From Chloroflexota bacterium (GTDB lineage: Bacteria > Chloroflexota > UBA11872 > UBA12225): a stretch of DNA of 64,000 bases. A program made the position numbers and the translations under genes. The notes beneath the pieces are model-generated. The model did no database searches, was not told the DNA's origin, and worked only from the letters and a program-made list of their open reading frames with translations. Shown in pieces: positions 9,485 to 31,475 of the stretch (position 1 is the stretch's first letter; each line of letters begins with the position of its first letter). The stretch covers positions 12,479-76,478 of the forward strand of contig DAOTTI010000012.1 of the NCBI GenBank assembly GCA_034437795.1, in the 5' to 3' direction.

Positions 9485-10261
9485 ATGGCAGATGATGTGA
9501 GCACCCCCTGGTACCGGCCGTTCTTTGGTGACGACTACCTGCGGGTCTATGCGCCCCGGCTCACGCCGCAGCGGACGGCGCAGGAGGTGGAGGGCATCGT
9601 CAAGCTGCTCGGGCTCCCGGCGGGGAGCGCCATTCTCGATCTGTGCTGCGGCCACGGGCGCCACGCCATTCCGCTGGCACAGCGGGGCTATCGCGTGACC
9701 GGCCAGGATCTGAGCGAGACCTTTCTGCGCCAGGCGGAAGCGAGCGCCGCGGCGGTGGGCGTTCGGGTGCAATGGGTGCGGCGGGACATGCGGGAGATGC
9801 CGTTCGAGAGCGAGTTCGACGCGGTGATCAACGTCTTCACCGCCTTTGGTTACTTCGAGCGTGAAGCAGATGACCAGCGGGTGCTGGAGGAAGTGCAGAA
9901 GGCGCTCAAGCCGGGCGGGGTGTTCCTCCTGGAGACGATGCACCGCGACGCCCTCGCGCGCAGGTTTCAGCCGTATGGGATTACGCGCCACGAGGACGGG
10001 CTGCTCGTGCTCGAAGAGCGGCGGTTCGACCAGGTGCGCGGGCGCAACGACGTGCTTCTGACCATGATCCACGCCGATGGCCGGCGCGTCGAGCACCGCC
10101 ATTCGGTACGTATCTACACGGCCACGGAGCTGGCGAGCATGTGCGCCGCGGCCGGTCTGCCGGTCGACGCCAGCTATGGCGGCCTGGACGGGAGCCCGCT
10201 GACCCTGGACAGCCGCCTGGCGCTGCTCTGCCGAAAGCCGGCCGCGAAGGCGGCGGGCTAG
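9485..10261 (+). CDS. Class I SAM-dependent methyltransferase
   Basis: ILDLCCGHGRH motif I, VTGQDLS, FDAVINVFTAFGYF, LKPGGVFLLE. Start placed at ATG 9485. Confidence 0.9.
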   Translation: MADDVSTPWYRPFFGDDYLRVYAPRLTPQRTAQEVEGIVKLLGLPAGSAILDLCCGHGRHAIPLAQRGYRVTGQDLSETFLRQAEASAAAVGVRVQWVRRDMREMPFESEFDAVINVFTAFGYFEREADDQRVLEEVQKALKPGGVFLLETMHRDALARRFQPYGITRHEDGLLVLEERRFDQVRGRNDVLLTMIHADGRRVEHRHSVRIYTATELASMCAAAGLPVDASYGGLDGSPLTLDSRLALLCRKPAAKAAG

Positions 10262-10371
10262 ACGACCCTGACTAGCAGCGGCGCCTTCACCGCCGCCCGC
10301 TGCGCAGGCTCCCGCTCTCCCACAGGGAGAGGGAACCGCCCTCGCCCCGGCCCCTCCCAGAGAGAGGGAAC

Positions 10372-10690
10372 TCATCGCTCGACCGCGAGAGGGGAGCCGG
10401 CGCCGGTGACGACCACTTCCTGTCCTTCGAGCCGCAGGCAGGCGCCCCGGTCGCTGGCAAGGCGGCGCATGGCCTCCACGATGGCCAGCCCGTCGCCGCG
10501 GGCAGGATCGAGCAGGACCGGGTGGTTCTGCTCGTCGCGCCGCAGCGGGACGAACGAGACCCGCGCCACCTGGCGGTCGCGCACCAGGCAGCGCAGCAGC
10601 AGGCCATCGCGCCGGCGGCGCATAGGTTCCCAGTCGAAGATGTAGTTAGTGCGGGCCCCGGCAGCCTCCTCGGGAGTGCATTTCCTGGAA
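10372..10690 (-). pseudogene. 3' remnant of a CapA/PGA_cap-like metallophosphoesterase gene
   Basis: LLLRCLVRDRQVARVSFVPLRRDEQNHPVLL...IVEAMRRL...LRLEGQEVVV resembles the C-terminus of CapA-family proteins. The upstream part is replaced by the AT-richer island. Confidence 0.5.
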
Positions 10691-10889
10691 CAACGGCGGC
10701 AAGGAAGGTAGTCTGAACCAGCAGTTGGGCGCCGCCGAACCGGGTCTCGCGGCGGCTGAGCCCGTTGGGCTGTCACCCGATGATATGGAGCGCCAGCGGC
10801 CCGGGCAACAGCACGCCAGAAGCGGGGTACACCGGCCGCTTTGCAGGACGGCGCCAGGCCCGATGCAGTTAGCTCCTCGCTGTCCGGCG

Positions 10890-12005
10890 CTACCGGACCT
10901 TGAGGATGTTGTTGCAGTTGGACCAGCCGACCACCTTCATGTTCGTGGCCGAGAAGCTGACGCTGGCGCAGCCGTAACGCCACGTGTACTCGCTCGCCTG
11001 CTGCGGCGTGCCCTGCACCGCCGCCACCTCTTGCTTAGTGGAACCCAGCGTGAACGTGCTGGCAGGTACTGCGGTAGGCCGGTTTGCTGCACCTTGCGTG
11101 CTACTAGCCGTAGTCGGCTGCCTGGCTGAAGCAGCCATAGTGGCCTGGGCAATTCTCGCTGCCTCTTGCGTCGCTTTCGCAGCAACTGCGGCGGCCTCTT
11201 GCGTCGCTCTGGCGGCCGCTGCCGCGGCTGTGGCTCCCGCTTCAGCAGTGGGGCGAAGGCGCAGCGCCTCGCCACTAAACGAACTGACCCCGAGGGCGGT
11301 CACGGTTTCGATCGCGGAGAGTGCACCTGCGTAGTTCCCTGCCTGCAAGAGCGACCCCGCGGCACCCAGGTGATCGGAAGCAGCCGCGTCTATCGCCGGG
11401 TCGATCACGTTACTGGCACCTATCAACCAGGCTTCAACCTGCTCCGCTCGCTCCGACCGCGCGGACACGGCACCATTGTCGTCCCGAACGCTCCAGAGCG
11501 CTACGCCCTCGACGGCGGCGATGACCTGCCAAGGCTTGCCGACCATGTCCTTCGGTGCCCACGCAATAAGCCACGTGCCGGCAGCATACGACTGAAGCCA
11601 GGTCCAGTCCGGAGATTGACCGACGAGGAAGCTATGGACGGAAATTCCCACACCAGCCGACCTCCGATCCGCCACGGCAGCGACAGCTTGTGCGGGCTGC
11701 ATCCGAGGGAAGAGAGGGCGCAGTGGCGTGGGGAGGGCGTGTGTCGAGGTGGGCACCGTGCGGAGGGCAGGTGTTGAAGTGGGCAGCATCGGAGGCGTGG
11801 AACGTGCCCCAAACAGCGTGACGCTGCCTCCGCTTGAAAGGTACGCTACTCCGATGGCGGTGATCACAGAGCCCACCAGCCAACCACCAGCCCGGCGTCC
11901 CAGACGTCCTCCCGATTTGGACGGTAGTCCGCTGTTGTTGGCCCCGCAATACGCGCAATAGTTGCAATGCGCCGGGATTGTCTTACCGCAGCGACGACAC
12001 CTCAC
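10890..12005 (-). CDS. Zinc-ribbon membrane protein with C-terminal SmpA/BamE-like small domain
   Basis: N-terminal CRRC...CAYC, one hydrophobic helix, Pro/Thr and Ala-rich linkers, C-terminal FTLGSTKQEVAAVQGTP...WRYG...VSFS...VVGWSN. Confidence 0.7.
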   Translation of the reverse strand: MRCRRCGKTIPAHCNYCAYCGANNSGLPSKSGGRLGRRAGGWLVGSVITAIGVAYLSSGGSVTLFGARSTPPMLPTSTPALRTVPTSTHALPTPLRPLFPRMQPAQAVAAVADRRSAGVGISVHSFLVGQSPDWTWLQSYAAGTWLIAWAPKDMVGKPWQVIAAVEGVALWSVRDDNGAVSARSERAEQVEAWLIGASNVIDPAIDAAASDHLGAAGSLLQAGNYAGALSAIETVTALGVSSFSGEALRLRPTAEAGATAAAAAARATQEAAAVAAKATQEAARIAQATMAASARQPTTASSTQGAANRPTAVPASTFTLGSTKQEVAAVQGTPQQASEYTWRYGCASVSFSATNMKVVGWSNCNNILKVR

Positions 12006-12092
12006 AAGATTCCATCATACACAGGGTGCGAAAACTGCGGTAACAAGCAAGCTCTCGCGCGGCGCTCCAGTCGGTCTAGGGCGTGTGCCCTA

Positions 12093-12413
12093 TCAGGGCC
12101 GGCACTTTCTGCACGCACGAAATCCGCATCGACGGGCTTCTTGCGTCGAGGAAAATAGCCGCCGGCTGCTCCCGCCAATCCTACGGGCCCACCGGCAGGA
12201 TGGCAGGTGGTAGATCAGGCTATGCGCGCTCGCAACTAACTGCGTGCCCTGAGCGGCTGGACCCCGTGTCACGGTCGCGGTTACGGCTTGCCTCTGAGTA
12301 GGCACGTGTGCCGGTGCAGCCACGTATGCGGTTGTCCGGGAACTAGCCCGCGTAGGGTTGGCAGGCGACGCACTCGGGTTTGCAGTGGCGCGCCGCGCCT
12401 TGGCGATCCTCAT
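12093..12413 (-). CDS. Small protein with C-terminal Ada-like metal-binding domain
   Basis: IYHLPSCRWARRI...FSSTQEARRCGFRACRKCRP matches the YH...C...GFRACxxCxP pattern. ATG at 12413 sits 2 nt after the kinase TAG. Confidence 0.65.
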   Translation of the reverse strand: MRIAKARRATANPSASPANPTRASSRTTAYVAAPAHVPTQRQAVTATVTRGPAAQGTQLVASAHSLIYHLPSCRWARRIGGSSRRLFSSTQEARRCGFRACRKCRP

Positions 12414-12415
12414 AC

Positions 12416-13660
12416 CTACGGCCCGAGGAGGCTCCCGAGCCAAGATTTCGGCCGCGCCACCACGGTGGCGAGCGACCCGCAGTGCGGACAGTGAGGTGCA
12501 GACTGGGGCATGTCTTTCCCACAGGTAGGACACGGTTGGTTGGGAACCAACTGAGCGCCACAGTGCTGGCAGTAGATCTCCGAAGCTAGATTAGGCCTAG
12601 CACAGTGGCGGCAAAGTGGCCAGGAGGCAGTACTGGCTGCGACAGGTGGAGTGATCCGGTGTTGAACTTGCGCCCGTGCGCAGTATGGACATTGCAGCGC
12701 GCGTTGCTGGCGAAAGTGGCCATTTGCGCACTGCACCAGGGTCTGTTCCGCCTCGCCCAAGGCTTGCTCCCACTCACTAGGAGATGGGCGACTAGTTGGA
12801 GCCGAATGACCGGATCCGAAGCACCGTACCACGAGTTCCGCTACCTTCGGATGCAGGAGATCAAGCGAGAGCCCTGAAGGGGCACGCACTAGAGCTCGGT
12901 TCACCTGTCCGTATGGAAAGAGGCCCTGCCGTATCTTCTCGGCGATATCAGGAGGCTCGCCAGGACCAAGCCACCGCGACCGGAACGGATGGTTTCCTTC
13001 CATGAGGAGCTGGAACACTAATACGCCCAGAGCGAAGGCATCGTGTGACGGCGTTCGCGCCTGGCGTTCGAATGATTTGCCTTGCAGTTCCGGCGGCGTG
13101 TACTCTGGCTTGCCGACCGGGCAGGAATACAGCCGTCGCACGCCGTTCTGTTGCACCTCCACCTGGAATGAGTCCGTGTCGATCAGCGTAACGAGCGCTT
13201 GCCTCGTCAGCAGAACGTTGGACTCGTTCAAATCACCGACAACGTATCCGCGTGCGTGAACCGCTGTCACTGCCGCAGCCAGATTGCGAGCGGATCTGTG
13301 GAGATACCTGGAATCAAAATTTGGCAGGGTCCTGGAGCGTAGACGGGGATTAAAGACTGTCAACACCTTGACGGCGTCAGTGATCCGAGGCATTAGATAA
13401 CCCACGACGCGCCCTTTGCCATCAGCTATCAGATCCACCGGCCACGCGATCGACGCGTGTCCAATCGAGCTACTCGGATCTGCAGGGGGATTGGCAACCA
13501 TGTGGCTGAGCTTCTCGGAGTAGCCGTCCCTCGGTCCAGGCACATACAGCTTCGCGACGAGAGCGGGTTCATGGGCGACCGTGTAAACGACACCCTCGCC
13601 CCCACGAGCCAACACCTGCCCGAGTTGCAGGGGGCCCTTCGAGCACCGGAGGTCCGTCAT
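12416..13660 (-). CDS. YegI-like protein kinase with C-terminal zinc ribbons (TerY-P triad)
   Basis: LARGGEGVVY, VAKLY, VVGDLNESNVL, LIDTDSFQ, GKPEYTPPELQG, DAFALGVLVFQLL. Cys clusters C..GH, CPYC, CRHC...CQHC, CPTC...CPHC. Confidence 0.9.
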   Translation of the reverse strand: MTDLRCSKGPLQLGQVLARGGEGVVYTVAHEPALVAKLYVPGPRDGYSEKLSHMVANPPADPSSSIGHASIAWPVDLIADGKGRVVGYLMPRITDAVKVLTVFNPRLRSRTLPNFDSRYLHRSARNLAAAVTAVHARGYVVGDLNESNVLLTRQALVTLIDTDSFQVEVQQNGVRRLYSCPVGKPEYTPPELQGKSFERQARTPSHDAFALGVLVFQLLMEGNHPFRSRWLGPGEPPDIAEKIRQGLFPYGQVNRALVRAPSGLSLDLLHPKVAELVVRCFGSGHSAPTSRPSPSEWEQALGEAEQTLVQCANGHFRQQRALQCPYCARAQVQHRITPPVAASTASWPLCRHCARPNLASEIYCQHCGAQLVPNQPCPTCGKDMPQSAPHCPHCGSLATVVARPKSWLGSLLGP

Positions 13661-13676
13661 GTGATGGCCCGAGCCT

Positions 13677-14447
13677 CTACCCTCGTTGAGTGAACAGCCG
13701 CCGGGAAGCGATGACGAGTGTCTTGTCGTCGTCGGTACGGGCGTTCACCCGCTCCGACGACAGAAAGCGCTGGAGGTGCTGCTCGGCTTCAACGATGTCG
13801 TTCGAATCGGCAACCAGCGCGAATAGGGGAAGAAAGAAGGGCTCGTGCGGGGTATAGGACGGCAACTGCACCGCTAAATGCAAGAGGCCGTCGGTCAGTG
13901 CGGCGAAAGCCAGCGGCCTGTCCAAGCGCACGTGTATGTCGAGGCCGTCGAGCGCTCCATCGCTAGTCAGGAAGGGCACCTCGTTGGCGTACTGGCCACG
14001 CTGCGGCCTAAGCAGGAGCCGCAATGCCATCTCGGCATCAAGCACCACAACGATCCCGTCGCCCACCTGAGCTGCAACGAGCACCTCCTCAGTTGCAACG
14101 ACGCCGCAGAGTGTCGTGGCGAACGACCGGACCGGAGCCGACTCCCGCTCAGCATATTGGATCACGGCGTTGCGAGCCTGCTTGAAAGCCTCTAAAACCA
14201 ATGCTTCCCAGTCGTCAGGACCCGATGCAGCCAGCATGGCACGTAGTGCCGCGTCGCAGAACGCCCGGGTAGCCACATCTGCGCCCTCGCGTGAGCGCAA
14301 TGCAGAGCCCGCGCCGTCGCCGATGGCCATCACGAGTGTCCGGTCATGCACTCGGCATGCGAATGAGTCCTGACAGTCCGCTCCCTTCGCAGCGTGGGAG
14401 GAACCAACAGCCGAGGCTGCGATAATGCGCCAGGAGCAATCAGGCAT
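13677..14447 (-). CDS. PP2C-family phosphatase, YegK-like (TerY-P triad)
   Basis: ASAVGSSH...CQDS, IGDGAGS, FATTL, QVGDG, LTDGL, RTDDDKTL. Start placed at ATG 14447. Confidence 0.9.
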   Translation of the reverse strand: MPDCSWRIIAASAVGSSHAAKGADCQDSFACRVHDRTLVMAIGDGAGSALRSREGADVATRAFCDAALRAMLAASGPDDWEALVLEAFKQARNAVIQYAERESAPVRSFATTLCGVVATEEVLVAAQVGDGIVVVLDAEMALRLLLRPQRGQYANEVPFLTSDGALDGLDIHVRLDRPLAFAALTDGLLHLAVQLPSYTPHEPFFLPLFALVADSNDIVEAEQHLQRFLSSERVNARTDDDKTLVIASRRLFTQRG

Positions 14448-14461
14448 CGGCTCGCCGCGCG

Positions 14462-15184
14462 CTACGAGTGGGACGTGTCCACCTGCCCCCAACCGACGGG
14501 CGGGAGCGGCACTTGCTCGCCCGGCCTCGACTGGGCGACCACCGAGACGCTCTTGGAGAGCCACTGGAAGAGCTCGCGAAAGGCCAGCCCCTTTAACCTT
14601 ACGGGAGGACGCTGATCGGAGAAACGCGACAGCACCTGCAGATCCGCCCCTTCCACGCCAACTGCGTAAAACGTGACGCCCTTTCGTGCTTCTTCGGCCC
14701 TAATCTCGTCCGCCGCGGCTTGCCACCCAAAGTCCGTTGGATGCCCATCCGTGATCAGAAACATCCACGGGCGGAAATAGTCAATGTTGTCCCTCCGATA
14801 GATGGCCTTCCTATCCCTGATAAGCGATAGCGCCCTTCGAACCGCTTCGCCCATGGGCGTTGCTCCGCTCGTTACCAGCACTGGCGGGGCGAAAGCATCA
14901 ACCGTAACGAACGCCTGCTCAGCATCGAATGGGATCGCGCCGCCAGCCCCTTTAACGTCCAGAGCCTGCACGGTGCCACCGAAGGTAACTATGGCAACTT
15001 CCACACGCAGAGACACGAGTGGGTCGGACCTAACTGCTTCAGCGAACTCCTTAAGACCCTGGTTTAGCTCCTGGATCGGGTCGCCCGACATCGAGGAAGA
15101 TGTATCCAGGACCAGCACCAGTGGGCACCGAGGCTCTGGGTTGTCAGCGAACTCGACGCTCTCAAGAGGCTGCTGAAGCGTCAT
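14462..15184 (-). CDS. vWA domain protein TerY/YegL-like (TerY-P triad)
   Basis: NPEPRCPLVLVLDTSSSMSG MIDAS motif, SGATPMG, YFRPWMFLITDGHPTD, FRELFQWLSKS. Confidence 0.92.
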   Translation of the reverse strand: MTLQQPLESVEFADNPEPRCPLVLVLDTSSSMSGDPIQELNQGLKEFAEAVRSDPLVSLRVEVAIVTFGGTVQALDVKGAGGAIPFDAEQAFVTVDAFAPPVLVTSGATPMGEAVRRALSLIRDRKAIYRRDNIDYFRPWMFLITDGHPTDFGWQAAADEIRAEEARKGVTFYAVGVEGADLQVLSRFSDQRPPVRLKGLAFRELFQWLSKSVSVVAQSRPGEQVPLPPVGWGQVDTSHS

Positions 15185-15291
15185 TCACTGGTACTCCTGG
15201 GTCGCCATCCCACTGATCCCTGCCCAAAGGGCGAAGCCTCACTGCACCGAGCCTTGCCTTCATAGGCTCAGCGCTTTACGCAGCCACCAAT

Positions 15292-15321
15292 AATATACCA
15301 CAACGCTAGCTTGTGATTCAA
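15292..15321 (-). promoter_or_regulatory. Sigma-70-type promoter for the TerY-P operon with an operator-like inverted repeat in the spacer
   Basis: Minus strand reads TTGAAT-N18-TATATT with an extended -10 TG. The spacer contains CACAA-N7-TTGTG. About 110 bp upstream of the vWA ATG. Confidence 0.6.
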
Positions 15322-15399
15322 CCGTGAGGGAGCATGTCTGACACGGCGGGAGCAGGCGGCAAGTGGGACGGCGGGCCGCGTTGGCGGCTGATGGGCCGC

Positions 15400-15774
15400 T
15401 CAGGGGGGCAATTCGATGGCTGGCGTGCGGGACGCAGGGCGGTAGCGGCGCCCTTTGGGGCGACCAGCCGGCTGGTCGCAGGGTTTTGGTGCGGCGGCCG
15501 GAGTGCCGAACAGTTCGCGAAGCTGCGAAAATGCGCGGTGCACGCGGTAGGGCGTCAACTGGCCGGCTGGGCGGGGGCGTTCCCACGGCAGGCGGTGGTC
15601 GATGACGAAGGGCCGGGCGAGCCTCAGTTGGGTGTAGGCAAGCACCACCAGCCAGGTCCACCGCTCGGCGGCCGCCGGCTGACGCACCCGCAGGGCCGTC
15701 CAGCCCAGGCTCTGTTTCTTTCCGAATCTCAGGGTATGCTCCAGATCGAAGCGGTGGACCTAGGCCCGCCAGAT
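15400..15774 (-). pseudogene. C-terminal remnant of a DDE transposase (IS4/IS701-like superfamily)
   Basis: Manual translation IWRA*VHRFDLEHTLRFGKKQSLGWTALRVRQPAAAERWTWLVVLAYTQLRLAR...PWERP. In-frame TAG at 15760-15762; N-terminal catalytic part absent. Confidence 0.75.
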
Positions 15775-15912
15775 CCAGGCTATCCTGGATCGCCCGCCGC
15801 CCGCCCTGCAATGACCAGCCGGCGGTGGCCGCGGCCACACCACCGACGCCGGCGTGGCCCTGCCCAGGCCCGGCGATCCTGCAATGACCAGCCGGCGGTG
15901 GCCGTAGACACC

Positions 15913-16653
15913 TTACGCCTCAGCGCGGCCTTTGATGCGGTCCAGCGCGTCGAAGGTAGCGCGGATTGCGTCGACGGCCGCGGGCACCAGTTGCTCGAGG
16001 TAGCGCCGGCCCTTGTCCGCCGTCGCGTCTGCCGCGTGGCCCCAGACGCCGCTCGGCTCGAGCGCCTTGATGGGCGCGTACAGCAGGAAGCTCTGGGTGT
16101 AGGGCACATCGGTGTTGATGGCGCGGTCCATCTTGACCAGGTTGGGCGCGATGTGGAGCATGCGAGAGGTCTCACTCTCGCCGGCATGGATGCTGCCGGG
16201 CGGTTCGGTAAAGGGACTGGTGGGGACGGACGCCTCCAGCAGGATGACCTGCAGGTCGTGGTCATCGCGGTTGAGGTCCTGGATAATGGGGCGCACGACG
16301 AAGTTCCCGCCGTGGCCGTTGAGGATCACGACGCGCCTCACGCCCTGCGCTCGGAGAGAGAGCACGATGTCCTTGACGAGGGCCATGAGCGTCTGGTTCG
16401 TGATCCAGACGGTGCCGGGTGAACCGCGGTGCATGTGGCTGACGGTGATAGGGATGGTTGGCAGGCGCCAGATGGGGAGGCGGCGGGCGATCTGGTCGGC
16501 GAGGTAGTCGACCTGGAAGGTATCGGTACCGCAGGGGAGGTGCGCGCCGTGCTGCTCCGTGGCGCCGAGCGGGAGTAAGGCTATCGTCGGCTGGGCGGCG
16601 GCGAAATCGGCACTGGTGCGGCGGTGGTCAAGGATGTCGGGATCCGGTCGCAT
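15913..16653 (-). CDS. Creatininase family protein
   Basis: LPLGATEQHGAHLPCGTD, SHMH, ILNGHGGN, IHAGESETS, SGVWG motifs. RBS GGAG before ATG 16653. Confidence 0.92.
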   Translation of the reverse strand: MRPDPDILDHRRTSADFAAAQPTIALLPLGATEQHGAHLPCGTDTFQVDYLADQIARRLPIWRLPTIPITVSHMHRGSPGTVWITNQTLMALVKDIVLSLRAQGVRRVVILNGHGGNFVVRPIIQDLNRDDHDLQVILLEASVPTSPFTEPPGSIHAGESETSRMLHIAPNLVKMDRAINTDVPYTQSFLLYAPIKALEPSGVWGHAADATADKGRRYLEQLVPAAVDAIRATFDALDRIKGRAEA

Positions 16654-25040: not shown

Positions 25041-25505
25041 TCATGCGTCGGGAAGTGGGACGCCGGCAGTGATGGCCTGCTTGAGGGCCCGCATCGCTTT
25101 GCCGACGGGCAGGCCGGCGGTCGGGGCGGAGAGCGTGACGGGGTAACCGGCGAACGCCTGGCAGGTGAGGCGGCGGTAGGCGGCGCCGCCGAGGACGATG
25201 ACGCGGTCGAACCGGTCAAGATGAAGGGTCTTGATCTGGCGCTGGAGCGCAGGAAGGTCGATGGGGCGGGTGCGGGGCCACTTGAAGGTGACGTCATAGG
25301 GGCCAGGGATCATGAAGTCGGGTGGGATGAAGCCATACCTGGCGCTGAGGATGACCCAGGCATCGCCGAAGCGCTCGGCATAGCGGCGGTTCAGCTGAAA
25401 GGGGGCGCCGGTGTAGGCGTCGCGAGCCGGCGCGGGACCGTGCGCGGGGCGCCGATCCCAGATCTTGCACTGCCCGCAGGGGACGACAATCAAGGTTCGC
25501 GGCAT
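25041..25505 (-). CDS. DUF6884-like protein
   Basis: LIVVPCGQCKIW...PARDAYTGAPF...YAERFGDAWVILSARYGFI.PD..I..PYDVTF...VIVLGGAAY...GLPVGK. Matches my recollection of the DUF6884 consensus. True start is ATG 25505 within ORF 25041-25829. Confidence 0.7.
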   Translation of the reverse strand: MPRTLIVVPCGQCKIWDRRPAHGPAPARDAYTGAPFQLNRRYAERFGDAWVILSARYGFIPPDFMIPGPYDVTFKWPRTRPIDLPALQRQIKTLHLDRFDRVIVLGGAAYRRLTCQAFAGYPVTLSAPTAGLPVGKAMRALKQAITAGVPLPDA

Positions 25506-25575
25506 CGCTGTCGTGGCCTGGCGTTGGGGGGCGGGACTTCCGCCGAGCCGACGTTCAACCGCGCCGAGCTGACGT

Positions 25576-26670
25576 TCAACCGGCAGGCGCGGCCGTGCCC
25601 GCTGGACCTGCGGCCGGCAGGGCGTGGTGGACGCGCTGCGAAAAGCGTTGGGCGGCCACCTGGGAGATAAGGGGGCGGTAGATGGAGTTGTCCAGGTGGT
25701 GCTCGTACCAGCCAGCGTAGGTGCCGTTGGCGAGGTGCGACCCGATGCGATCGGCTTCCTGCAGCAGCGTCCAGAGGTTATGGGTGGCGCGGTTGGAGAA
25801 GCCGGCGAGGCCGGCAGCGCGCAATCCATCGAGGCCCCACCGGTGGCAGGCGGGACAGGGGCAGGAAGCGAGGGTCTTCACCTCATCGTGGCTGGGCGGG
25901 CGCCCCCGCCAGGAGCCGAGGTTGGCGATGACGCGATCTCCGCTGCCGGGGGACTGGACGATGCCGCGGGCGGCGCGGTTGCGCCAGCCGGACGAGTCGC
26001 AGGAGTCGAGCTCAAGCAGCGCGGCGAGGTGGAGGGTGGCGGTGCCGCCGATGCCGAAGACGTGGAGCTGGCGGCCGGACAGGCGCCGCCGCGCGCGGCG
26101 GACGCCGTCGAGCACCTCGGCGTAGGGGACGGCCTGTGGCGCGCGGAGGAGGTTAGGGACGATGCCGCCCAGGCCGACGGCTGGCTTCTGGCGCAGGCGC
26201 TCGTCTTCGTGGAGTTGGCTGAGATAGTCATCCAGGTGGCGACTGATGTGGATGACGGGGACGTAGCCGTCATGCCGGTAGGCGCGGTTGATGGCCATGG
26301 TGCGCTCAAGGCAGCGCCACTGCTCGGTCTCGCTCATGGCGGGCGTGGGAATGTAGTCCTGAGGAACGACGTACCAGTCGGGGCGGGCGTGGCGGACGAA
26401 GGTCTCGTACTCGTCACGGGGGACCTCGCCGCCCTTAGAGAGGAAGGCAAAGGCGCCGTTATCCAGGTAGACGGCGACGCGGCCCGCTGGCCGGATGCCC
26501 AGATAGGCGTGGAGACCCTGCTCCATGGCCAGGCGGCGCTTGCGAGGGTTGGTGTGGAACTCGAAGTAGGAGACCATGACCGCCCGGAGCTGGGGCAGGT
26601 AATAGGGAGACTCAGGGTCCCAGACGCGGGGCTGGAGGTTCTTGAGGCTGAGGCCGGCGACGACGAGCAC
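25576..26670 (-). CDS. tRNA-guanine transglycosylase-fold protein (divergent, DpdA/TGT-like)
   Basis: VYLDNGAF, PQDYIP, VGLGG, LHVFGIG, LDSCDSSGW and Zn-binding CPCPAC...H(NL) motifs appear in TGT order. Confidence 0.85.
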   Translation of the reverse strand: MLVVAGLSLKNLQPRVWDPESPYYLPQLRAVMVSYFEFHTNPRKRRLAMEQGLHAYLGIRPAGRVAVYLDNGAFAFLSKGGEVPRDEYETFVRHARPDWYVVPQDYIPTPAMSETEQWRCLERTMAINRAYRHDGYVPVIHISRHLDDYLSQLHEDERLRQKPAVGLGGIVPNLLRAPQAVPYAEVLDGVRRARRRLSGRQLHVFGIGGTATLHLAALLELDSCDSSGWRNRAARGIVQSPGSGDRVIANLGSWRGRPPSHDEVKTLASCPCPACHRWGLDGLRAAGLAGFSNRATHNLWTLLQEADRIGSHLANGTYAGWYEHHLDNSIYRPLISQVAAQRFSQRVHHALPAAGPAGTAAPAG

Positions 26671-26674
26671 GGGA

Positions 26675-28576
26675 TCATCTCATTGGCTGGGAGGAGTGGG
26701 GCGCAGCGGCCATCTGCTGGCGAGCTTTCTCGAGCCTCTCGAACGCATCCTCCTCTTCGCGCTCACCCTTGGATTCCGGCTCCTTGATGCGGACCAGCAC
26801 AGGGAAGTTGATGAACTGGCCGGAGAGGATGGCTTCCCCGACGTCGAGGTCGGGCAGCATCCTGGCTTCTTCCTCGCCGAGGGTCTCCACGACACGCCGG
26901 ACGAAGCTCTGGTCGGCTGGGTTGACCATGCGCATGATGACGTAGGAGTTGCACTGGGAGAGGGTGGTCTCATCCAGGCGCGAGGGACGCTGGCTGATGA
27001 GGATCAGCCCCACGTTGAACTTGCGGCCTTCCTGGGCGATCTGCCTGGTGACGGTGATGGCCCGCTGCTCGGCGGCCGTGGCGGCATGCGCTGGCGCGAA
27101 GTTGTGCGCCTCCTCCAGGATGAGTAAGACGGGCAGCTGGAGATCGCCGCTGACCTTAGCGTCAAGGAGCTGGTTGGCGATGATAGTGTAGATGGTGGCC
27201 TGGAAGTCCGAGGTGTAGCCGGCAAGCGCGACGACGCTGATGCCGCCGTAGCGTACAAGCTCCTTACGGTCGACGGGAAGTGGCTGAGCGTCGCGCGCGA
27301 CTGTCTTATTGGTTTCTTCCATGCGGCGAAGTACTGCGGCGGCCTGGTAGGCGCGCTTCTTGATGCCTTCAAGGGTACGCCTATCGGTGCTGGAGTAGGT
27401 GCCGAGAGCGGTCCAGCCCCAGTTGACGAGCTGCTGACGGTGGGGTTGGCTATTTTGCCGCAGGACGACTTCGCCGGCCTCGGCAATGTTGGCAATGAGC
27501 CACATGTCCCGCTTTACGCCGTAGGTCAGTAGTTCCGGCTTGCCGATAAGGTCTGCAAGCCAACTGGTACGTTGCTTCATCTCGGAGTGATCGGGCACGA
27601 CGAAGGCTTTCGCGGTACGGAACACATCGTCGAAACGGGTGCGCATCGTGTCGGTGAGTTCGTAGCCCAGGGTGTCGATGACCTTGGCGACGGTGTCGCT
27701 CTCCTCCTCGAAGACGGGGAATTGGGCGTAATAGCGGTGGACTTTGCCACTGAGAGCCGGCACATCCGCCAGGCCGGTGTAGTCCCCATGAGGATCGAAG
27801 ATGACGATGGGGTAGTGCTTGGCGGCGAGCTGCTCGACGATGCGGCGGGCGGTCCAGCTCTTGCCCGCGCCGGTCATGGCCAGGATGGCGAGGTGGCGGG
27901 TAACGATGGCGTGGCCGTCGACCATGACGGTCACGTCGGGGCGGTTGGAGAGTGTGGCGATGTCCAGCGCGCGGGCCGTTCGCTGCTGCAGCTCACCGAG
28001 CACGACCCGAGCGATGTCGTCGGGGTCTGGGCGGTAGGCGCTGGTGGCGGGCTGGGGAGGATAGCGGAGGGGAGCCAGCTTGGCACCGGCGCCATCGTCG
28101 AGGGGCTCGCAGCCGAGCACGCGGCAGACGGCGGTGACCATCTCGCGGCTGAGCGAGATCACCGTGTCGAAGGGATCGGTGCGAGTGGCGGCGAGCTCGT
28201 GGCCGGCCTCTACCGGAAAGAGCGGGTTCAGGCGCTCAATGCGCTGGACCTTGGCCCAGACGCGGATCCGCTCCTTGCCGCCGGTCGGTGGCGGAGGGGC
28301 GGCGGCGCGCGCGGCGGGAGACGACGCGGTGGATGCTGCCGAGGCGCCATCCGTCGCGGGCGCGCCCGGGCGCCAGAGCTCGGCGTCAATGGCGATGATG
28401 TCCTGCTCGCGGATGGCCTCCTGATGGATGGCCAGACGGAACTCGCGGCTGGTGCTCTCGCCGACGATCGTGCCGACGTAGCGGTCGTAGCGGCTGGCGC
28501 GTGGCGCGGCTGGAGGCGGGGCCGGCGCGCTGCGCTCGGCGATGCGGAGCAGAGCGGGATCAAGTCGACGCGCCAT
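26675..28576 (-). CDS. HerA-family ATPase/helicase (HAS barrel + DUF87)
   Basis: N-terminal HAS-like barrel, RHLAILAMTGAGKS Walker A, LILEEAHNFAP Walker B, QEGRKFNVGLILISQRPSRLDETTLSQCNS. Confidence 0.92.
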   Translation of the reverse strand: MARRLDPALLRIAERSAPAPPPAAPRASRYDRYVGTIVGESTSREFRLAIHQEAIREQDIIAIDAELWRPGAPATDGASAASTASSPAARAAAPPPPTGGKERIRVWAKVQRIERLNPLFPVEAGHELAATRTDPFDTVISLSREMVTAVCRVLGCEPLDDGAGAKLAPLRYPPQPATSAYRPDPDDIARVVLGELQQRTARALDIATLSNRPDVTVMVDGHAIVTRHLAILAMTGAGKSWTARRIVEQLAAKHYPIVIFDPHGDYTGLADVPALSGKVHRYYAQFPVFEEESDTVAKVIDTLGYELTDTMRTRFDDVFRTAKAFVVPDHSEMKQRTSWLADLIGKPELLTYGVKRDMWLIANIAEAGEVVLRQNSQPHRQQLVNWGWTALGTYSSTDRRTLEGIKKRAYQAAAVLRRMEETNKTVARDAQPLPVDRKELVRYGGISVVALAGYTSDFQATIYTIIANQLLDAKVSGDLQLPVLLILEEAHNFAPAHAATAAEQRAITVTRQIAQEGRKFNVGLILISQRPSRLDETTLSQCNSYVIMRMVNPADQSFVRRVVETLGEEEARMLPDLDVGEAILSGQFINFPVLVRIKEPESKGEREEEDAFERLEKARQQMAAAPHSSQPMR

Positions 28577-28624
28577 GGTGATCGTCCTTGCAAGGTACGG
28601 TGGCGACCCGCAGGCATGAGCGGG

Positions 28625-30142
28625 CTAGGTCTGGGGGCGGAAGAGCCAGTCGCGATGCGTCATGTAGATCGCCTGGACGATGATGCGCCGCATCTCCGCG
28701 TCGGAGATCTCGCCCCGCTGGAGACTGACGCCGAGGTGATAGCGGATCAGCTTGGCGTAGGCGTCGGTGAGCCAGCCCGGCACGTGGGCATACTTGTCGG
28801 CAACGTCCAGGCCCACAGGGAAGCCGTAGCCGGGGAGCAGGCGGGCGTACAGGTAGGTGCGGCGGCAGGCCTCGGCAAGCTGGTCGGGACCGAGGGCTTC
28901 AAACACCTCGATGCGGATCGGCTCAGTGATCTCGGAGACGTGCAGGTAGCAAGCGCGGACCGCGGGGAAGCCGACGGGGCTGGGCGGGCGGAGGACGGAC
29001 CAGTCGGCCGTGGTGCTGAAGGACCCGCCCGGCAGGGCGATCTGGCCGCGGCGCAGGCCATGGTACTTGGAGATCGGCCAGGGCTCGGAATACTGGCCGG
29101 GCTGGAGGAGCATGGCCAGCAGGAGCGCATCGGTGTAGCCGAGGCGGTCGAGGAGGGCTTTGGAGGAGGTCAGGTCCGTGCGGCCGTACAACCGGTTGAA
29201 GTAATCGGTCTTTCCCTTCTCGCGCAGCTTTCGAAAGACCCGTTCCAGGAGGATCGTTTCGAGGAAGGCGCGGGAGGTGTCGCGCTCGACGACACCGCAG
29301 ATGACGGGCGCCGGCGTTCGCTGGCGGGCGCGCTCGATGAGCCGGCGATAGAGAAAGGCCATCCAGGCCAGTGGCTCGAACAGGTGGCGGCGGGCCCACT
29401 CGTCGGCACGGCGGGGGACGTGGGGGACCATGGCGGGGTAGATCTCGGCGGCGGCCTGGCGCAGGAAGTCGGCTTTGAGGGCCTGGCCCAGCGAAGGATC
29501 AGGGGCGTAGTGCTGCAGGAAGCGGTCGATATCCGCTTCCGTGAAAGGGGAGTGGCCGGCATAGGCGCCGACGAGGTAGACGAGCGGCCCGTGGAACATG
29601 AGCAGGCGCAGGTCAGGCGTGCGCTCCAGGGCGGAGAGGCCGCCCAGGAGCTCGGCGGTGATGCGGACGATATCGACGAAGTCCTTGCGCTCCTTGCTGC
29701 CCCCTTCGAGGTCGCCAAGGATCACGGGGTAGTAGCCGAAGCGCTCGCGCTCAGAGAGGTGGCGCTCGCCGGTGCGCACGGAGTACGAGCCGACGCGGAG
29801 CAGGATGGGAACCTGGCTGGAGAACTGGACCTGGCCTACGCCACCGTCGATGAAGGTGACGACCTCGCCCTGGAGGCTGGCCCACTCGGCGTCGGACACG
29901 GTGTGCACGGCCATGATCGGATCAGGGCGATTGATGGCTTTGCGGAGGTCGGTGACGAAGCGGGTAGTGTTCTTAAAGTAGTTGTCGCGCAGGCTCTCGG
30001 CAACGGTGAGGGCATTCGCCGCGAGCCGGAGCGGGAGGTAGCGCTGGGTCTGGAGATCGTGCAGGACGCCCTCTTCGGTGAAGGGTCGTGGCGGCAGGTC
30101 GCGGCGTGGCGCGGGCGTTCCACGTTGATGCGTCAGGGCCAT
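28625..30142 (-). CDS. NurA-family nuclease
   Basis: TFIDGG, RITAE, MFHGPL, CGVVER, PIRIEV and GYGFPVGLDVADKYA. Located immediately upstream of HerA. Confidence 0.82.
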   Translation of the reverse strand: MALTHQRGTPAPRRDLPPRPFTEEGVLHDLQTQRYLPLRLAANALTVAESLRDNYFKNTTRFVTDLRKAINRPDPIMAVHTVSDAEWASLQGEVVTFIDGGVGQVQFSSQVPILLRVGSYSVRTGERHLSERERFGYYPVILGDLEGGSKERKDFVDIVRITAELLGGLSALERTPDLRLLMFHGPLVYLVGAYAGHSPFTEADIDRFLQHYAPDPSLGQALKADFLRQAAAEIYPAMVPHVPRRADEWARRHLFEPLAWMAFLYRRLIERARQRTPAPVICGVVERDTSRAFLETILLERVFRKLREKGKTDYFNRLYGRTDLTSSKALLDRLGYTDALLLAMLLQPGQYSEPWPISKYHGLRRGQIALPGGSFSTTADWSVLRPPSPVGFPAVRACYLHVSEITEPIRIEVFEALGPDQLAEACRRTYLYARLLPGYGFPVGLDVADKYAHVPGWLTDAYAKLIRYHLGVSLQRGEISDAEMRRIIVQAIYMTHRDWLFRPQT

Positions 30143-31257
30143 CGGTCCGCCATCCCAGAGATAACGCGCAGGCGATATACGAGAGGGACGCCACCCCTCC
30201 TACCTGGCGGGAGCACACAAGTGCGCACTTTAATTAATGCACCGGCACGACGCGGCGTCAACGGTGAGCCAGGGGACGCCTGGCTGAGCGCCTGGCAGCG
30301 CTCCTGCGCCAAGAGCGGACTGACAGGAAAGACTATCGGGCGAGACGCGCTCCTCTTCTCGAGGCATCGCCCATCGTCGCAGCAGGCGGATCGCCAGCGG
30401 GTGGCTACGGGGAGATGCTGGTTCAACGCCAGCCGCTCGCGCGTGCCGTTGGAGAAGCGGAAGGTCAGTGAGGCGTAGTCGAACGGCGGATCGTCGCGAT
30501 GGATGGCGGCGTGGTGATTAGGGCAGACGAGCACCATGTTCTCTCGCTCGTCCTCGCCCCCGCGCGACAGCCACTGGATGTGGTGGGCGTGACAGAGACG
30601 ATAGCCGTAGCGGGTCCGCGGGTCGTAGAGGCACACCTGGCAGCGGCCGGCAGAGAGCTCCTGGAGCCGTTCCACGCGCTGCCGTGCGCGGTGCAGGTCG
30701 ACCGGCTCGAAGACGTACTTCAGCCGGCGCCCGTACTGGGCCTTGTCCTCGCGCAGGACGAGTGAGCGGGCGGCCTCGCCGTGGATCAGCCGCGCCTCGA
30801 ACTCGTCGTCAGGGTACAGCGCCACGCGGTCGAGCGCCGGCAGGTAGAGTGCGAACGCGACCAGGACCTGGTGATCGGCGTGGCTAAGGATGCGCACGGC
30901 AGCATGCCCCTGGAACGCCTGGCCGAGGCGCTGGCCGGCGGCCTTCACCTGGAGCGGCCGGATGAGCGGCTCGGCATTCGGCGCAACGTCGATATCGAAG
31001 TACCGGCTCCGGACCAAGTCGCCCCAGATGCGATAGCGCCCGTACCAGTAGTGTGGTAGATTGGTGGTGACAGCGCGCACCACGAGCCCGGCCGCCAGCA
31101 CATATTGACCATCGCGCTCACGGCGCGTGAACGCCCACAGGCTGTCGCCAGGACGAGCCGACAGCATGGCGGGGCTGCTCTGATTCAGGTGGTAGCCGAA
31201 CCAGAGGCGACGATCGCGGGCGTAGTTATCGGGCCGCCAGTAGTACAGCAGCGGCAT
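30133..31257 (-). CDS. HNH endonuclease with N-terminal PUA/EVE-like domain; the C-terminal ~90 codons are probably read-through
   Basis: CQVC...AHHIQWLSRGGED..ENMVLVCPNHHAAIH HNH motif; N-terminal PGDSLWAFTR...YVLAA segment. Start uncertain (31257, 31278 or 31326). Confidence 0.8.
   Translation of the reverse strand: MPLLYYWRPDNYARDRRLWFGYHLNQSSPAMLSARPGDSLWAFTRRERDGQYVLAAGLVVRAVTTNLPHYWYGRYRIWGDLVRSRYFDIDVAPNAEPLIRPLQVKAAGQRLGQAFQGHAAVRILSHADHQVLVAFALYLPALDRVALYPDDEFEARLIHGEAARSLVLREDKAQYGRRLKYVFEPVDLHRARQRVERLQELSAGRCQVCLYDPRTRYGYRLCHAHHIQWLSRGGEDERENMVLVCPNHHAAIHRDDPPFDYASLTFRFSNGTRERLALNQHLPVATRWRSACCDDGRCLEKRSASRPIVFPVSPLLAQERCQALSQASPGSPLTPRRAGALIKVRTCVLPPGRRGGVPLVYRLRVISGMADRWP
30219..30237. 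promoter_or_regulatory. Palindrome AAGTGCGCACTT plus TTAATTAA, possible operator/promoter of the nurA operon
   Basis: Perfect 12-bp palindrome at 30219-30230 overlapping an AT-only octamer, about 80 bp upstream of the nurA ATG. Confidence 0.4.
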
Positions 31258-31475
31258 CTGCGCGGCATTGTCGCGCACATGTCTCGGCTCACCCTCCCTG
31301 GACGATGGCCGCGGCTCCAGTGTCACTACCGGGAGTGGCCGGCTGAGCAGTTGCGCGCACAGATTACCCGGGTTGCTGCTGAGCCGTGCTGCGGCACAGT
31401 GTCGCGGGCACCCCCCGCCACCCTTCAGCCGGTATGGTGCAGTCGGTCAGCTAGGCCGAAAAAGCGGAAGGGCCT

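Follow-up and report, generated by a model that had tools for sequence, protein, structure and literature searches.

Our analysis of a 64,000-nucleotide stretch of contig DAOTTI010000012.1 from a Chloroflexota bacterium (the window, positions 12,479 to 76,478 of the contig) shows that a NurA-family nuclease, a HerA-family ATPase, an enzyme of the tRNA-guanine transglycosylase (TGT) superfamily and a DUF6884 protein are encoded together in a four-gene cassette that recurs across bacterial phyla. The constant core of this cassette consists of the TGT-like and DUF6884 genes, and the ATPase and nuclease partner is interchangeable. What the data show plainly is which genes these are, that their active-site motifs are intact, that the cassette recurs and is modular, and that it is linked with queuosine-pathway genes. 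We would give an even chance to the cassette being a compact system of the Dpd kind, in which DNA receives a 7-deazaguanine mark from the TGT-like and DUF6884 proteins and NurA-HerA provides the nuclease activity. Judged from its sequences, its most likely role is to mark the DNA of its host and to destroy DNA that is unmarked.

The cassette occupies positions 25041-30142 of the window as four co-oriented open reading frames (ORFs) on the minus strand. An initial annotation of the window had described four co-oriented genes with gaps of 48, 4 and 70 nt, and both the coordinates and the intergenic gaps were reproduced exactly. The G+C content of the window is ∼70%, and all four cassette ORFs show high third-position G+C. 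The same annotation had recognized a NurA-like nuclease, a complete HerA ATPase and a DUF6884-like protein, each of which is backed by matches to family profiles, and a TGT-fold enzyme with intact catalytic and zinc motifs, for which an AlphaFold model, a family profile and a set of invariant residues now speak.

To see how widely this arrangement occurs, we scanned one genome per species from 185,579 species. A relative of the TGT-like gene is present in 138 of these genomes, and the best 80 loci, 81 with the window, were kept for comparison. In ∼70 of the 75 assessable loci the TGT-like gene adjoins a HerA-type ATPase and a nuclease, and in the sole assessable locus without either partner (L046) the TGT gene is frameshifted. 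The 80 loci include Chloroflexota, Cyanobacteria, Acidobacteriota, Latescibacterota, Poribacteria, Planctomycetota and Bacteroidota, as well as Trueperaceae, Rubrobacteraceae, Heliomicrobium, Nitrospiria, Gemmatimonadaceae and Proteobacteria. Two cyanobacterial loci are plasmid-borne, and different variants of the cassette occur inside Microcoleus.

Clustering of all ORFs of these loci, together with searches with the window proteins, separates four architectures. Type A (DUF6884 - NurA - HerA - TGT) accounts for 38 of the 81 loci, the window among them; its NurA-HerA-TGT order is kept across more than 12 phyla, an adjacency far beyond chance, and the gene order that the initial annotation had seen in one genome does recur in unrelated ones. 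Type B, found in 20 loci, reads DUF6884 - a shorter HerA - an unannotated protein of 540 aa (U541) - TGT. In type C (12 loci, three of which are also type A) the TGT-like gene stands beside a row of genes for a sigma-70-like protein, an unknown protein, an M78 peptidase, NurA', HerA', an Mre11-like and a Rad50/SbcC-like protein, where NurA' matches the Deinococcus-type NurA 7f6d at 6e-7 and HerA' matches HerA with an hhalign probability of 97%. In type D (3 loci) a Z1-domain protein (PF10593, 4e-23) is encoded between DUF6884 and TGT. Z1-domain proteins are restriction-type partners of cytosine methylases. Over the 80 loci the ORF clusters give HerA, NurA, DUF6884, U541, Mre11/Rad50, Z1 and M78 as the only conserved partners. 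Identity between the TGT-like proteins is ∼58% both within and between the types; one conserved TGT module has therefore been recombined repeatedly with different ATPase and nuclease modules.

Some of the variants have features of their own. A complete NurA-HerA-Mre11-Rad50 module ending in the TGT-like gene is found in L041:1-7925, L042, L044, L036 and L100, where all its products are annotated as hypothetical; the module also resides on cyanobacterial plasmids (L100 is Aulosira laxa plasmid6), and its M78 peptidase is IrrE-like. U541 takes the place of NurA between HerA and TGT in L007:8366-9988, L077:6369-7988 and 18 other loci. Proteins of this family have ∼540 aa, share 55-75% identity across phyla and contain an invariant RDGS along with many invariant Trp, His and Asp residues; they match nothing in Pfam, PADLOC or PDB. 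The idea that U541 is a divergent NurA is unsupported, with a profile-profile probability of 0.1% and only the invariant RDGS as a suggestive trait. In one Poribacteria locus (L070:690-9038) NurA-HerA and HerA-U541 stand in tandem before a single TGT-like gene.

The TGT-like protein is a divergent member of the TGT superfamily and does not fall outside it. The window protein scores 24.9 bits with PF01702, just below the gathering cut-off of 26.3, and most of its homologues carry a precomputed PF01702 match. In a Foldseek search its AlphaFold model (predicted local distance difference test, pLDDT, 86) matches the archaeosine tRNA-guanine transglycosylase (ArcTGT) 1iq8 with an E-value of 2.3e-13 and a template modelling (TM) score of 0.66, and bacterial and human TGT with TM scores of 0.64-0.68. 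The profile of the family matches the same ArcTGT structure at 3e-11 and DpdA 7ui4 at 1.4e-4. Invariant in 21 homologues are D70 (YLDNG), D105, the motif GGIVPNL, D222/D225 (DSxDSSGWRNRAARG) and the zinc ligands C270, C272, C275 and H297, and the catalytic Asp and zinc residues align with the ArcTGT motifs VDSGS, DLFDSA, CSCPVC and HNLW. The protein does not belong to ArcTGT proper, as its TIGR00432 score is 32 bits (4e-8) against an equivalog cut-off of 350. Its chain ends after the zinc subdomain and lacks the C-terminal C1/C2/PUA tRNA-binding domains of ArcTGT, being 364 aa long (∼345 in the family) versus 582. The clade is small and lies apart from canonical TGT: it comprises 652 clusters (50% identity) among 1.84 billion, 90 of them at E<=1e-30, and more than 1,400 close metagenome relatives with 60-80% identity. 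Relatives of the window protein in L026 and L041 match the DpdA model of PADLOC (2.5e-11 and 3.4e-8, respectively).

Another branch of the superfamily is represented by Cap10, the protein-directed TGT of type IV CBASS, which has lost the zinc site and the nucleic-acid surface (bioRxiv 10.1101/2025.04.06.647259). The family described here differs from Cap10 in keeping the zinc site, and CD-NTase is not among its conserved neighbours. From the retention of the zinc site and of both catalytic Asp residues, and from partners that all act on DNA, we infer that the TGT-like enzyme acts on nucleic acid. A phage origin of the clade was considered and rejected: there is one match among 2.9 million viral contigs, on a contig without NurA or HerA, and 50,697 phage genomes give weak matches only, to DpdA3-type proteins of Cellulophaga. 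On the single viral contig (L094, IMGVR_UViG_3300016466_000585) the TGT-like gene follows a row of genes for proteins of ∼230-245 aa, two of which are similar to 3'-phosphoadenosine-5'-phosphosulfate (PAPS) reductase. The PAPS-reductase-like PP-loop family includes DndC.

The second constant component, the DUF6884 protein, matches PF21818 at 8.9e-18 in the window (65.2 bits, cut-off 30). Among PADLOC models it matches the candidate PDC-M57A (1.4e-12) and, weakly, DpdC (2.7e-5); for window and long-form proteins taken together these weak DpdC matches range from 2.7e-5 to 1e-4. Both C10-x3-K14 and L53-S54-A55..G58 are conserved in short and long forms of the protein. The best PDB match of its model (pLDDT 96.9) in Foldseek is AF0587 (2q07), presumably an ArcS-C1/PUA-type protein, and YaaA (5caj) is matched weakly. 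The Pfam authors relate DUF6884 remotely to YaaA (DUF328) and note a cleft for DNA binding as well as conserved CxxxK and LSAxxG motifs (PMC11701544). DpdC is a DUF328 protein as well (PMC12839542), and it turns preQ0-DNA into 7-amido-7-deazaguanine (ADG)-DNA (PMC10164549). The catalytic core of ArcS, which together with DpdA2 makes deoxyarchaeosine (dG+) in phage DNA, has a PC-x3-KPY motif (PMC10516641, PMC5699537). The (P)C-x3-K likeness of DUF6884 to this core may be taken as a lead, a resemblance with homology unconfirmed. DUF6884 resembles DpdC and YaaA and likely completes the writing module.

Of 87 loci, 66 have a DUF6884 gene together with the TGT-like gene, and the remainder are mostly clipped upstream or pure type C. 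The short form lies downstream of TGT in the window and in its nearest relative, L095, whose cassette is 76% identical to that of the window at the nucleotide level over 5.1 kb; elsewhere the protein is a long form of ∼250 aa encoded upstream of NurA. A viral counterpart exists in Halorubrum tailed virus 29 (HRTV-29, genus Dpdavirus; L099:4953-6078), where the DpdA gene is overlapped by a DUF6884-like gene that is 31% identical to that of the window and goes under the annotation 'peroxide stress protein YaaA'. In Barkley26 and HRTV-8 the phage DUF6884 genes do not adjoin DpdA, and such pairing is not general in viruses. Loci of Poribacteria contain an extra DUF6884 paralogue (hhalign 90%). In Microbispora and others, short-form DUF6884 is paired with a protein of 438-486 aa at loci that have no TGT (L096:5689-7471, L098:4515-6291, L097:7001-9031). 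This partner has no match in Pfam or PADLOC, and its being a hidden TGT was rejected (hhalign probability 0.1%). The two genes may constitute a separate system with a possible relation to PDC-M57, a candidate listed by PADLOC.

The nuclease side of the cassette is a regular NurA-HerA pair, a NurA domain with conserved acidic residues adjoining a HerA with Walker motifs. The window NurA matches the Pfam family at E=1e-8 (35.4 bits, gathering cut-off 21), and invariant acidic and His residues include D99 in FIDGG, E133, D144, H184 and D446/D449; the protein is long (∼500 aa), and its sequence matches no solved NurA structure. The HerA protein matches DUF87 (4.5e-24), the HerA models of NCBIfam (1.5e-49) and PADLOC (1.6e-58) and HerA structures down to 1.7e-37, and its translation contains Walker A (MTGAGKSW) and Walker B (LLILEEAH). 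The end of its gene is 4 nt from the TGT start. In phmmer comparisons with locus homologues, conservation across phyla reaches E ∼1e-220 for NurA and ∼1e-260 for HerA, and the window NurA shares 56-71% identity with the partners encoded beside TGT-like genes at 18 loci of many phyla. Such identity of NurA-HerA across phyla, together with the sporadic occurrence of the cassette, points to horizontal spread.

Several peculiarities of these two proteins should be mentioned. Residues ∼70-100 of the window HerA form a low-complexity insertion rich in Ala, Pro and Ser, and the protein is ∼40 aa longer than most homologues. Larger HerA proteins of ∼760-780 aa are encoded in some type A cassettes (L004:7719-10004, also L005, L006 and L011; L080:5653-7992), and in the L004 group an N-terminal HNH nuclease domain is fused to the motor. 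In L095 (771-2206) the NurA region aligns with the window as DNA, only a NurA fragment of 162 aa is called, and the nuclease appears to be broken.

Genes of the queuosine pathway are found near part of the cassettes. At least one gene of this type (transporter, QueC or canonical tgt) lies within 8 kb of the cassette in ∼22 of 73 loci. At this distance a Vut_1/YhhQ-family transporter (PF02592, 9e-53) is encoded in 13 non-redundant loci, mostly just upstream of DUF6884, and QueC or a QueC-like protein in four to five of the ∼73 loci (L036, L063, L081, L082); in two loci the QueC-like gene is without the usual C-terminal Cys cluster. YhhQ imports preQ0 and preQ1, and QueC makes preQ0. Within the same 8 kb, L052, L056 and L067 contain a canonical bacterial tgt. 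The initial annotation had allowed for the TGT-like gene being the only tRNA TGT of its host, and this is not so where it can be seen: canonical tgt coexists with it in these three loci, and the TGT-like gene is therefore not the tRNA enzyme in those genomes. Four loci (L026:1016-1624, L019, L025, L027) encode DUF366 next to the cassette, and where a YhhQ-type transporter is present DUF366 adjoins it. The only solved relative of DUF366 is the hypothetical protein 2ddz, and no paper on the family was found in our literature search; it may be an enzyme of 7-deazaguanine salvage that has gone unrecognised.

In the marking system that we favour, the TGT-like enzyme would put a 7-deazaguanine (preQ0 or a related base) in the place of guanine in duplex DNA. 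This base would be supplied by the queuosine pathway of the host or, in many genomes, by the YhhQ-type importer encoded next to the cassette. DUF6884, with its Cys-x3-Lys motif, would act on the inserted base, either converting it, as DpdC does with preQ0 to give ADG, or reading it. The HerA hexamer and NurA would serve as an ATP-driven degrading arm that loads at DNA ends and destroys DNA devoid of the mark. HerA may additionally provide ATP-dependent opening of DNA, as DpdB does for DpdA, and the HerA and TGT genes are almost contiguous. We regard the whole as resembling a restriction-modification system because a constant two-gene writer is combined with swappable nuclease arms, precursor genes nearby and a sparse, partly plasmid-borne spread. 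Of the two mechanisms proposed in the initial annotation, marking of self DNA by the TGT fits better, because ∼30% of the loci carry a transporter, QueC or tgt and a writer needs a supply of base, while an eraser of marks does not; excision of modified guanine from invading DNA, with the lesion handed to NurA-HerA, is less favoured. DNA as the substrate, the base that is used, the self/non-self logic and a role in defence are what we infer here.

A number of observations weigh against a writer of self marks. There is no queuosine-pathway gene in the 64 kb of the window, and ∼70% of the loci show none within 8 kb. Pure Mre11-Rad50-type loci have no DUF6884 within 8 kb, and short-form DUF6884 genes like that of the window are found without any TGT. 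The window TGT gives no PADLOC DpdA match at E<=0.01 in addition to lying below the Pfam cut-off, and by sequence its family is closer to the archaeosine tRNA TGT than to DpdA. The immediate neighbours of the cassettes are mostly housekeeping genes, with 117 different Pfam families among 120 neighbours. Finally, NurA-HerA needs DNA ends, and it is unclear how a sparse mark would shield a circular chromosome or gate the nuclease. One arrangement, on which we would place little weight, has the TGT riding on HerA-NurA or Rad50-Mre11, so that the mark finished by DUF6884 would act as an epigenetic 'Chi' that halts resection on self DNA, and an unmarked linear invader would be digested fully. If true, it would constitute a new self/non-self logic, with a base-exchange enzyme mechanically coupled to a DNA translocase. 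A kindred idea is genuine repair of damaged guanine by base exchange.

Repair or tolerance of DNA damage is an alternative that we hold to be unlikely. Here NurA-HerA, with or without Mre11-Rad50, would resect breaks, TGT and DUF6884 would handle abasic sites or guanine lesions, for instance through direct exchange of a lesion for guanine, and the deazaguanine genes would be incidental or serve another purpose. NurA-HerA and Mre11-Rad50 are indeed classic end-resection machines, the type C NurA' resembles the Deinococcus enzyme, and the type C module opens with a sigma-70-like gene and includes the IrrE-like M78 peptidase, all of which speaks for repair. So do the presence of Trueperaceae, Rubrobacteraceae, Thermomicrobiales and desert cyanobacteria among the carriers and the mostly housekeeping nature of the genes around the cassette. 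The DUF6884 member YfjM was reported among binders of abasic and RNA-base lesions, and YaaA takes part in peroxide stress (PMC11701544). Yet presence in 138 of 185,579 species, on plasmids and with different variants within one genus, is far too sparse and patchy for core repair. Repair nevertheless leaves unexplained the recurrent YhhQ-type transporter, QueC and tgt neighbours, the swap to a restriction-type Z1 partner and the HNH-HerA fusions.

An eraser or reader of marks would need no supply of 7-deazaguanine, yet the transporter and QueC are the most specific recurrent neighbours of the cassette. This bears on a modification-dependent, type IV-like defence, in which the TGT would recognise 7-deazaguanines in phage DNA, forming a covalent ribosyl-enzyme intermediate or removing the base, and NurA-HerA would degrade the DNA. 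TGT chemistry is reversible and proceeds via a covalent enzyme-nucleic acid intermediate, the junction between the HerA and TGT genes suggests a physical complex, and in the window the cassette adjoins a type IV-like McrA/HNH gene. Many phages do carry 7-deazaguanines inserted by DpdA (PMC10516641). The conserved DUF6884 partner, however, resembles enzymes that finish a mark (DpdC), and the TGT module is equally conserved with any nuclease partner, as a writer would be; we consider a type IV-like role quite improbable. We find it very unlikely that the TGT-like enzyme does not act on DNA at all and instead modifies tRNA or other RNA, or, like Cap10, binds or removes a deazaguanine on a partner protein and thereby regulates HerA-NurA: its nearest solved structure by sequence and fold is an archaeosine tRNA TGT, homologues are labelled '7-cyano-7-deazaguanine tRNA-ribosyltransferase' by JGI, QueC-like and TGT-like proteins do deazaguanylate protein in CBASS type IV (bioRxiv 10.1101/2025.04.06.647259) and the QueC-like gene of two loci is without its usual Cys cluster, but the family is without the C-terminal tRNA-binding and PUA domains of ArcTGT (∼345 versus 582 aa), keeps the zinc site that Cap10 lost, coexists with canonical tgt in at least three loci, has QueC-like genes in just 4-5 of ∼73 loci and is conserved together with DNA enzymes exclusively.

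The architecture matched no described system in our searches, and the initial annotation had known of none. PADLOC v2 run on the window, a check that it had proposed, did not recognize the cassette as a named system: matches were obtained for HerA (generic models) and DUF6884 (PDC-M57A and weak DpdC) only, NurA and TGT gave no match, and SIR2-HerA, DUF4297-HerA, Dpd, Qat and CBASS IV were all incomplete. The TGT, NurA and DUF6884 proteins of the window are not covered by any NCBIfam model, and public records name these proteins hypothetical. Full-text literature searches found no account of NurA with a transglycosylase or deazaguanine in this architecture, and the nearest description, BREX-related capture (BRC), differs in all other components.

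Of the known systems, Dpd (dpdA-K of Salmonella Montevideo and others), a 7-deazaguanine restriction-modification system, shares with the cassette a TGT-superfamily enzyme, a helper that resembles YaaA (weakly so in the cassette) and ATPase and nuclease genes; it depends on preQ0 of the queuosine pathway, as the cassette is predicted to, and its sparse, island-like spread is comparable. In contrast to Dpd, the TGT of the cassette belongs to another clade, being ∼345 rather than 436 aa long and reaching a profile E-value of just 1.4e-4 with DpdA 7ui4, and the cassette counts four genes instead of eleven. Neither the ParB-like DpdB nor DpdD-K are among the recurrent neighbours in the 80 loci, the helper is DUF6884 and not DUF328, and and NurA-HerA or one of the other three partner sets makes up the nuclease arm. 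With the NurA-HerA(-Mre11-Rad50) resection apparatus of archaea and bacteria the cassette has in common adjacent NurA and HerA genes with intact motifs and, in one variant, the full set; the cassette pair, however, is fixed to TGT-like and DUF6884 genes and occurs sporadically, not lineage-wide. SIR2-HerA and DUF4297-HerA likewise combine a HerA-type motor with an effector, which in the cassette is NurA in place of SIR2 or DUF4297. In BRC (HerA/FtsK, GNAT and TGT) a TGT homologue is the proposed writer of a DNA self mark (PMC12839542), as we suggest here, but the cassette lacks PglZ, DUF6079, STAND NTPase, DUF4007 and GNAT and has NurA and DUF6884. Viral DpdA modules (DpdA1-4 with ArcS-core, QueC and DpdL/M/N) pair a DNA transglycosylase with a small base-finishing enzyme, as the cassette is predicted to do, whereas the TGT clade of the cassette is essentially absent from viruses and linked to nucleases, not to a full set for preQ0 synthesis.

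If the cassette does write such marks, 7-deazaguanine marking of DNA would reach beyond the eleven-gene Dpd island, in the form of a four-gene cassette found in more than 12 phyla, mostly in environmental lineages (Chloroflexota, Cyanobacteria, Poribacteria, Latescibacterota and Acidobacteriota). Bacterial NurA-HerA, whose role is poorly understood outside archaea, would gain a job as a restriction arm, and functions would follow for DUF6884, for the unannotated 540-aa family and perhaps for DUF366. The swappable partners (NurA-HerA, Mre11-Rad50, Z1) amount to a natural experiment on how a mark is coupled to a nuclease. Among the carriers are cultured cyanobacteria (Calothrix sp. PCC 7103, Tolypothrix tenuis PCC 7101, Aulosira laxa NIES-50 and Chlorogloeopsis fritschii PCC 6912) and one strain of Bacteroidota (Adhaeribacter aerolatus NBRC 106133), which makes the system directly testable by liquid chromatography-mass spectrometry and genetics.

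Features of the cassette locus in the window
Feature	Coordinates	Strand	Remarks
NurA-family nuclease	30142..28625	-	505 aa; Pfam NurA match
HerA-family hexameric ATPase/translocase	28576..26675	-	633 aa; DUF87, NCBIfam HerA, PADLOC HerA, HerA structures
TGT-superfamily base-exchange enzyme, predicted DNA-guanine transglycosylase	26670..25576	-	364 aa; GTG start
DUF6884 protein, short form	25505..25041	-	154 aa; PF21818; predicted modifier or reader of inserted 7-deazaguanine
Apparently non-coding stretch of ∼260 nt upstream of NurA, candidate promoter region	30143..30403	-	sole AT-rich patch CATTAATTAAAG; weak
McrA-like HNH endonuclease, a neighbour and not a conserved part of the cassette	30133..31326	-	homologous part 31257..30404

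Directly upstream of NurA and co-oriented with it lies the HNH ORF (Pfam HNH, 4e-6), which was absent from the initial annotation. It has more than 600 homologues of ∼286 aa, labelled in some sources '5-methylcytosine-specific restriction enzyme A', which by BLASTP end at ...HLPVAV, a residue encoded near 30404. In the window the stop is lost and the ORF extends 88 codons beyond this point, spanning the ∼260 nt that would otherwise be spacer before NurA and reaching 10 nt into the NurA ORF. Its true start is probably M24 (31257). We considered whether the HNH gene is the fifth gene of the operon and rejected this because its homologues stand alone in unrelated contexts: those in three other genomes are solitary in unrelated surroundings, and a match near a cassette, a weak one, exists only in L082. 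It is treated here as a separate type IV-like restriction gene and a chance neighbour of the cassette. A scan of the window locus for consensus promoters and terminators found none above shuffled controls.

Across the loci, neighbours of the cassette include DarT-Macro, HEPN/NTase, PIN and IS21. We count these in favour of the marking system, together with the patchy, mobile-like distribution, the McrA-like gene beside the cassette in the window and the HNH domain of some HerA partners. A comparison with empty sites for cassette insertion was uninformative, as L092 shares the HNH gene only and L095 itself carries the cassette. The other genes that flank the cassette in the window are metabolic and encode amidohydrolases, solute-binding proteins and GFO/IDH oxidoreductases. 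Further away, positions 10001-16000 of the window have a G+C content of 0.62-0.68 against ∼0.70 elsewhere, and few ORFs there pass the third-position G+C filter; this part may be a separately acquired segment.

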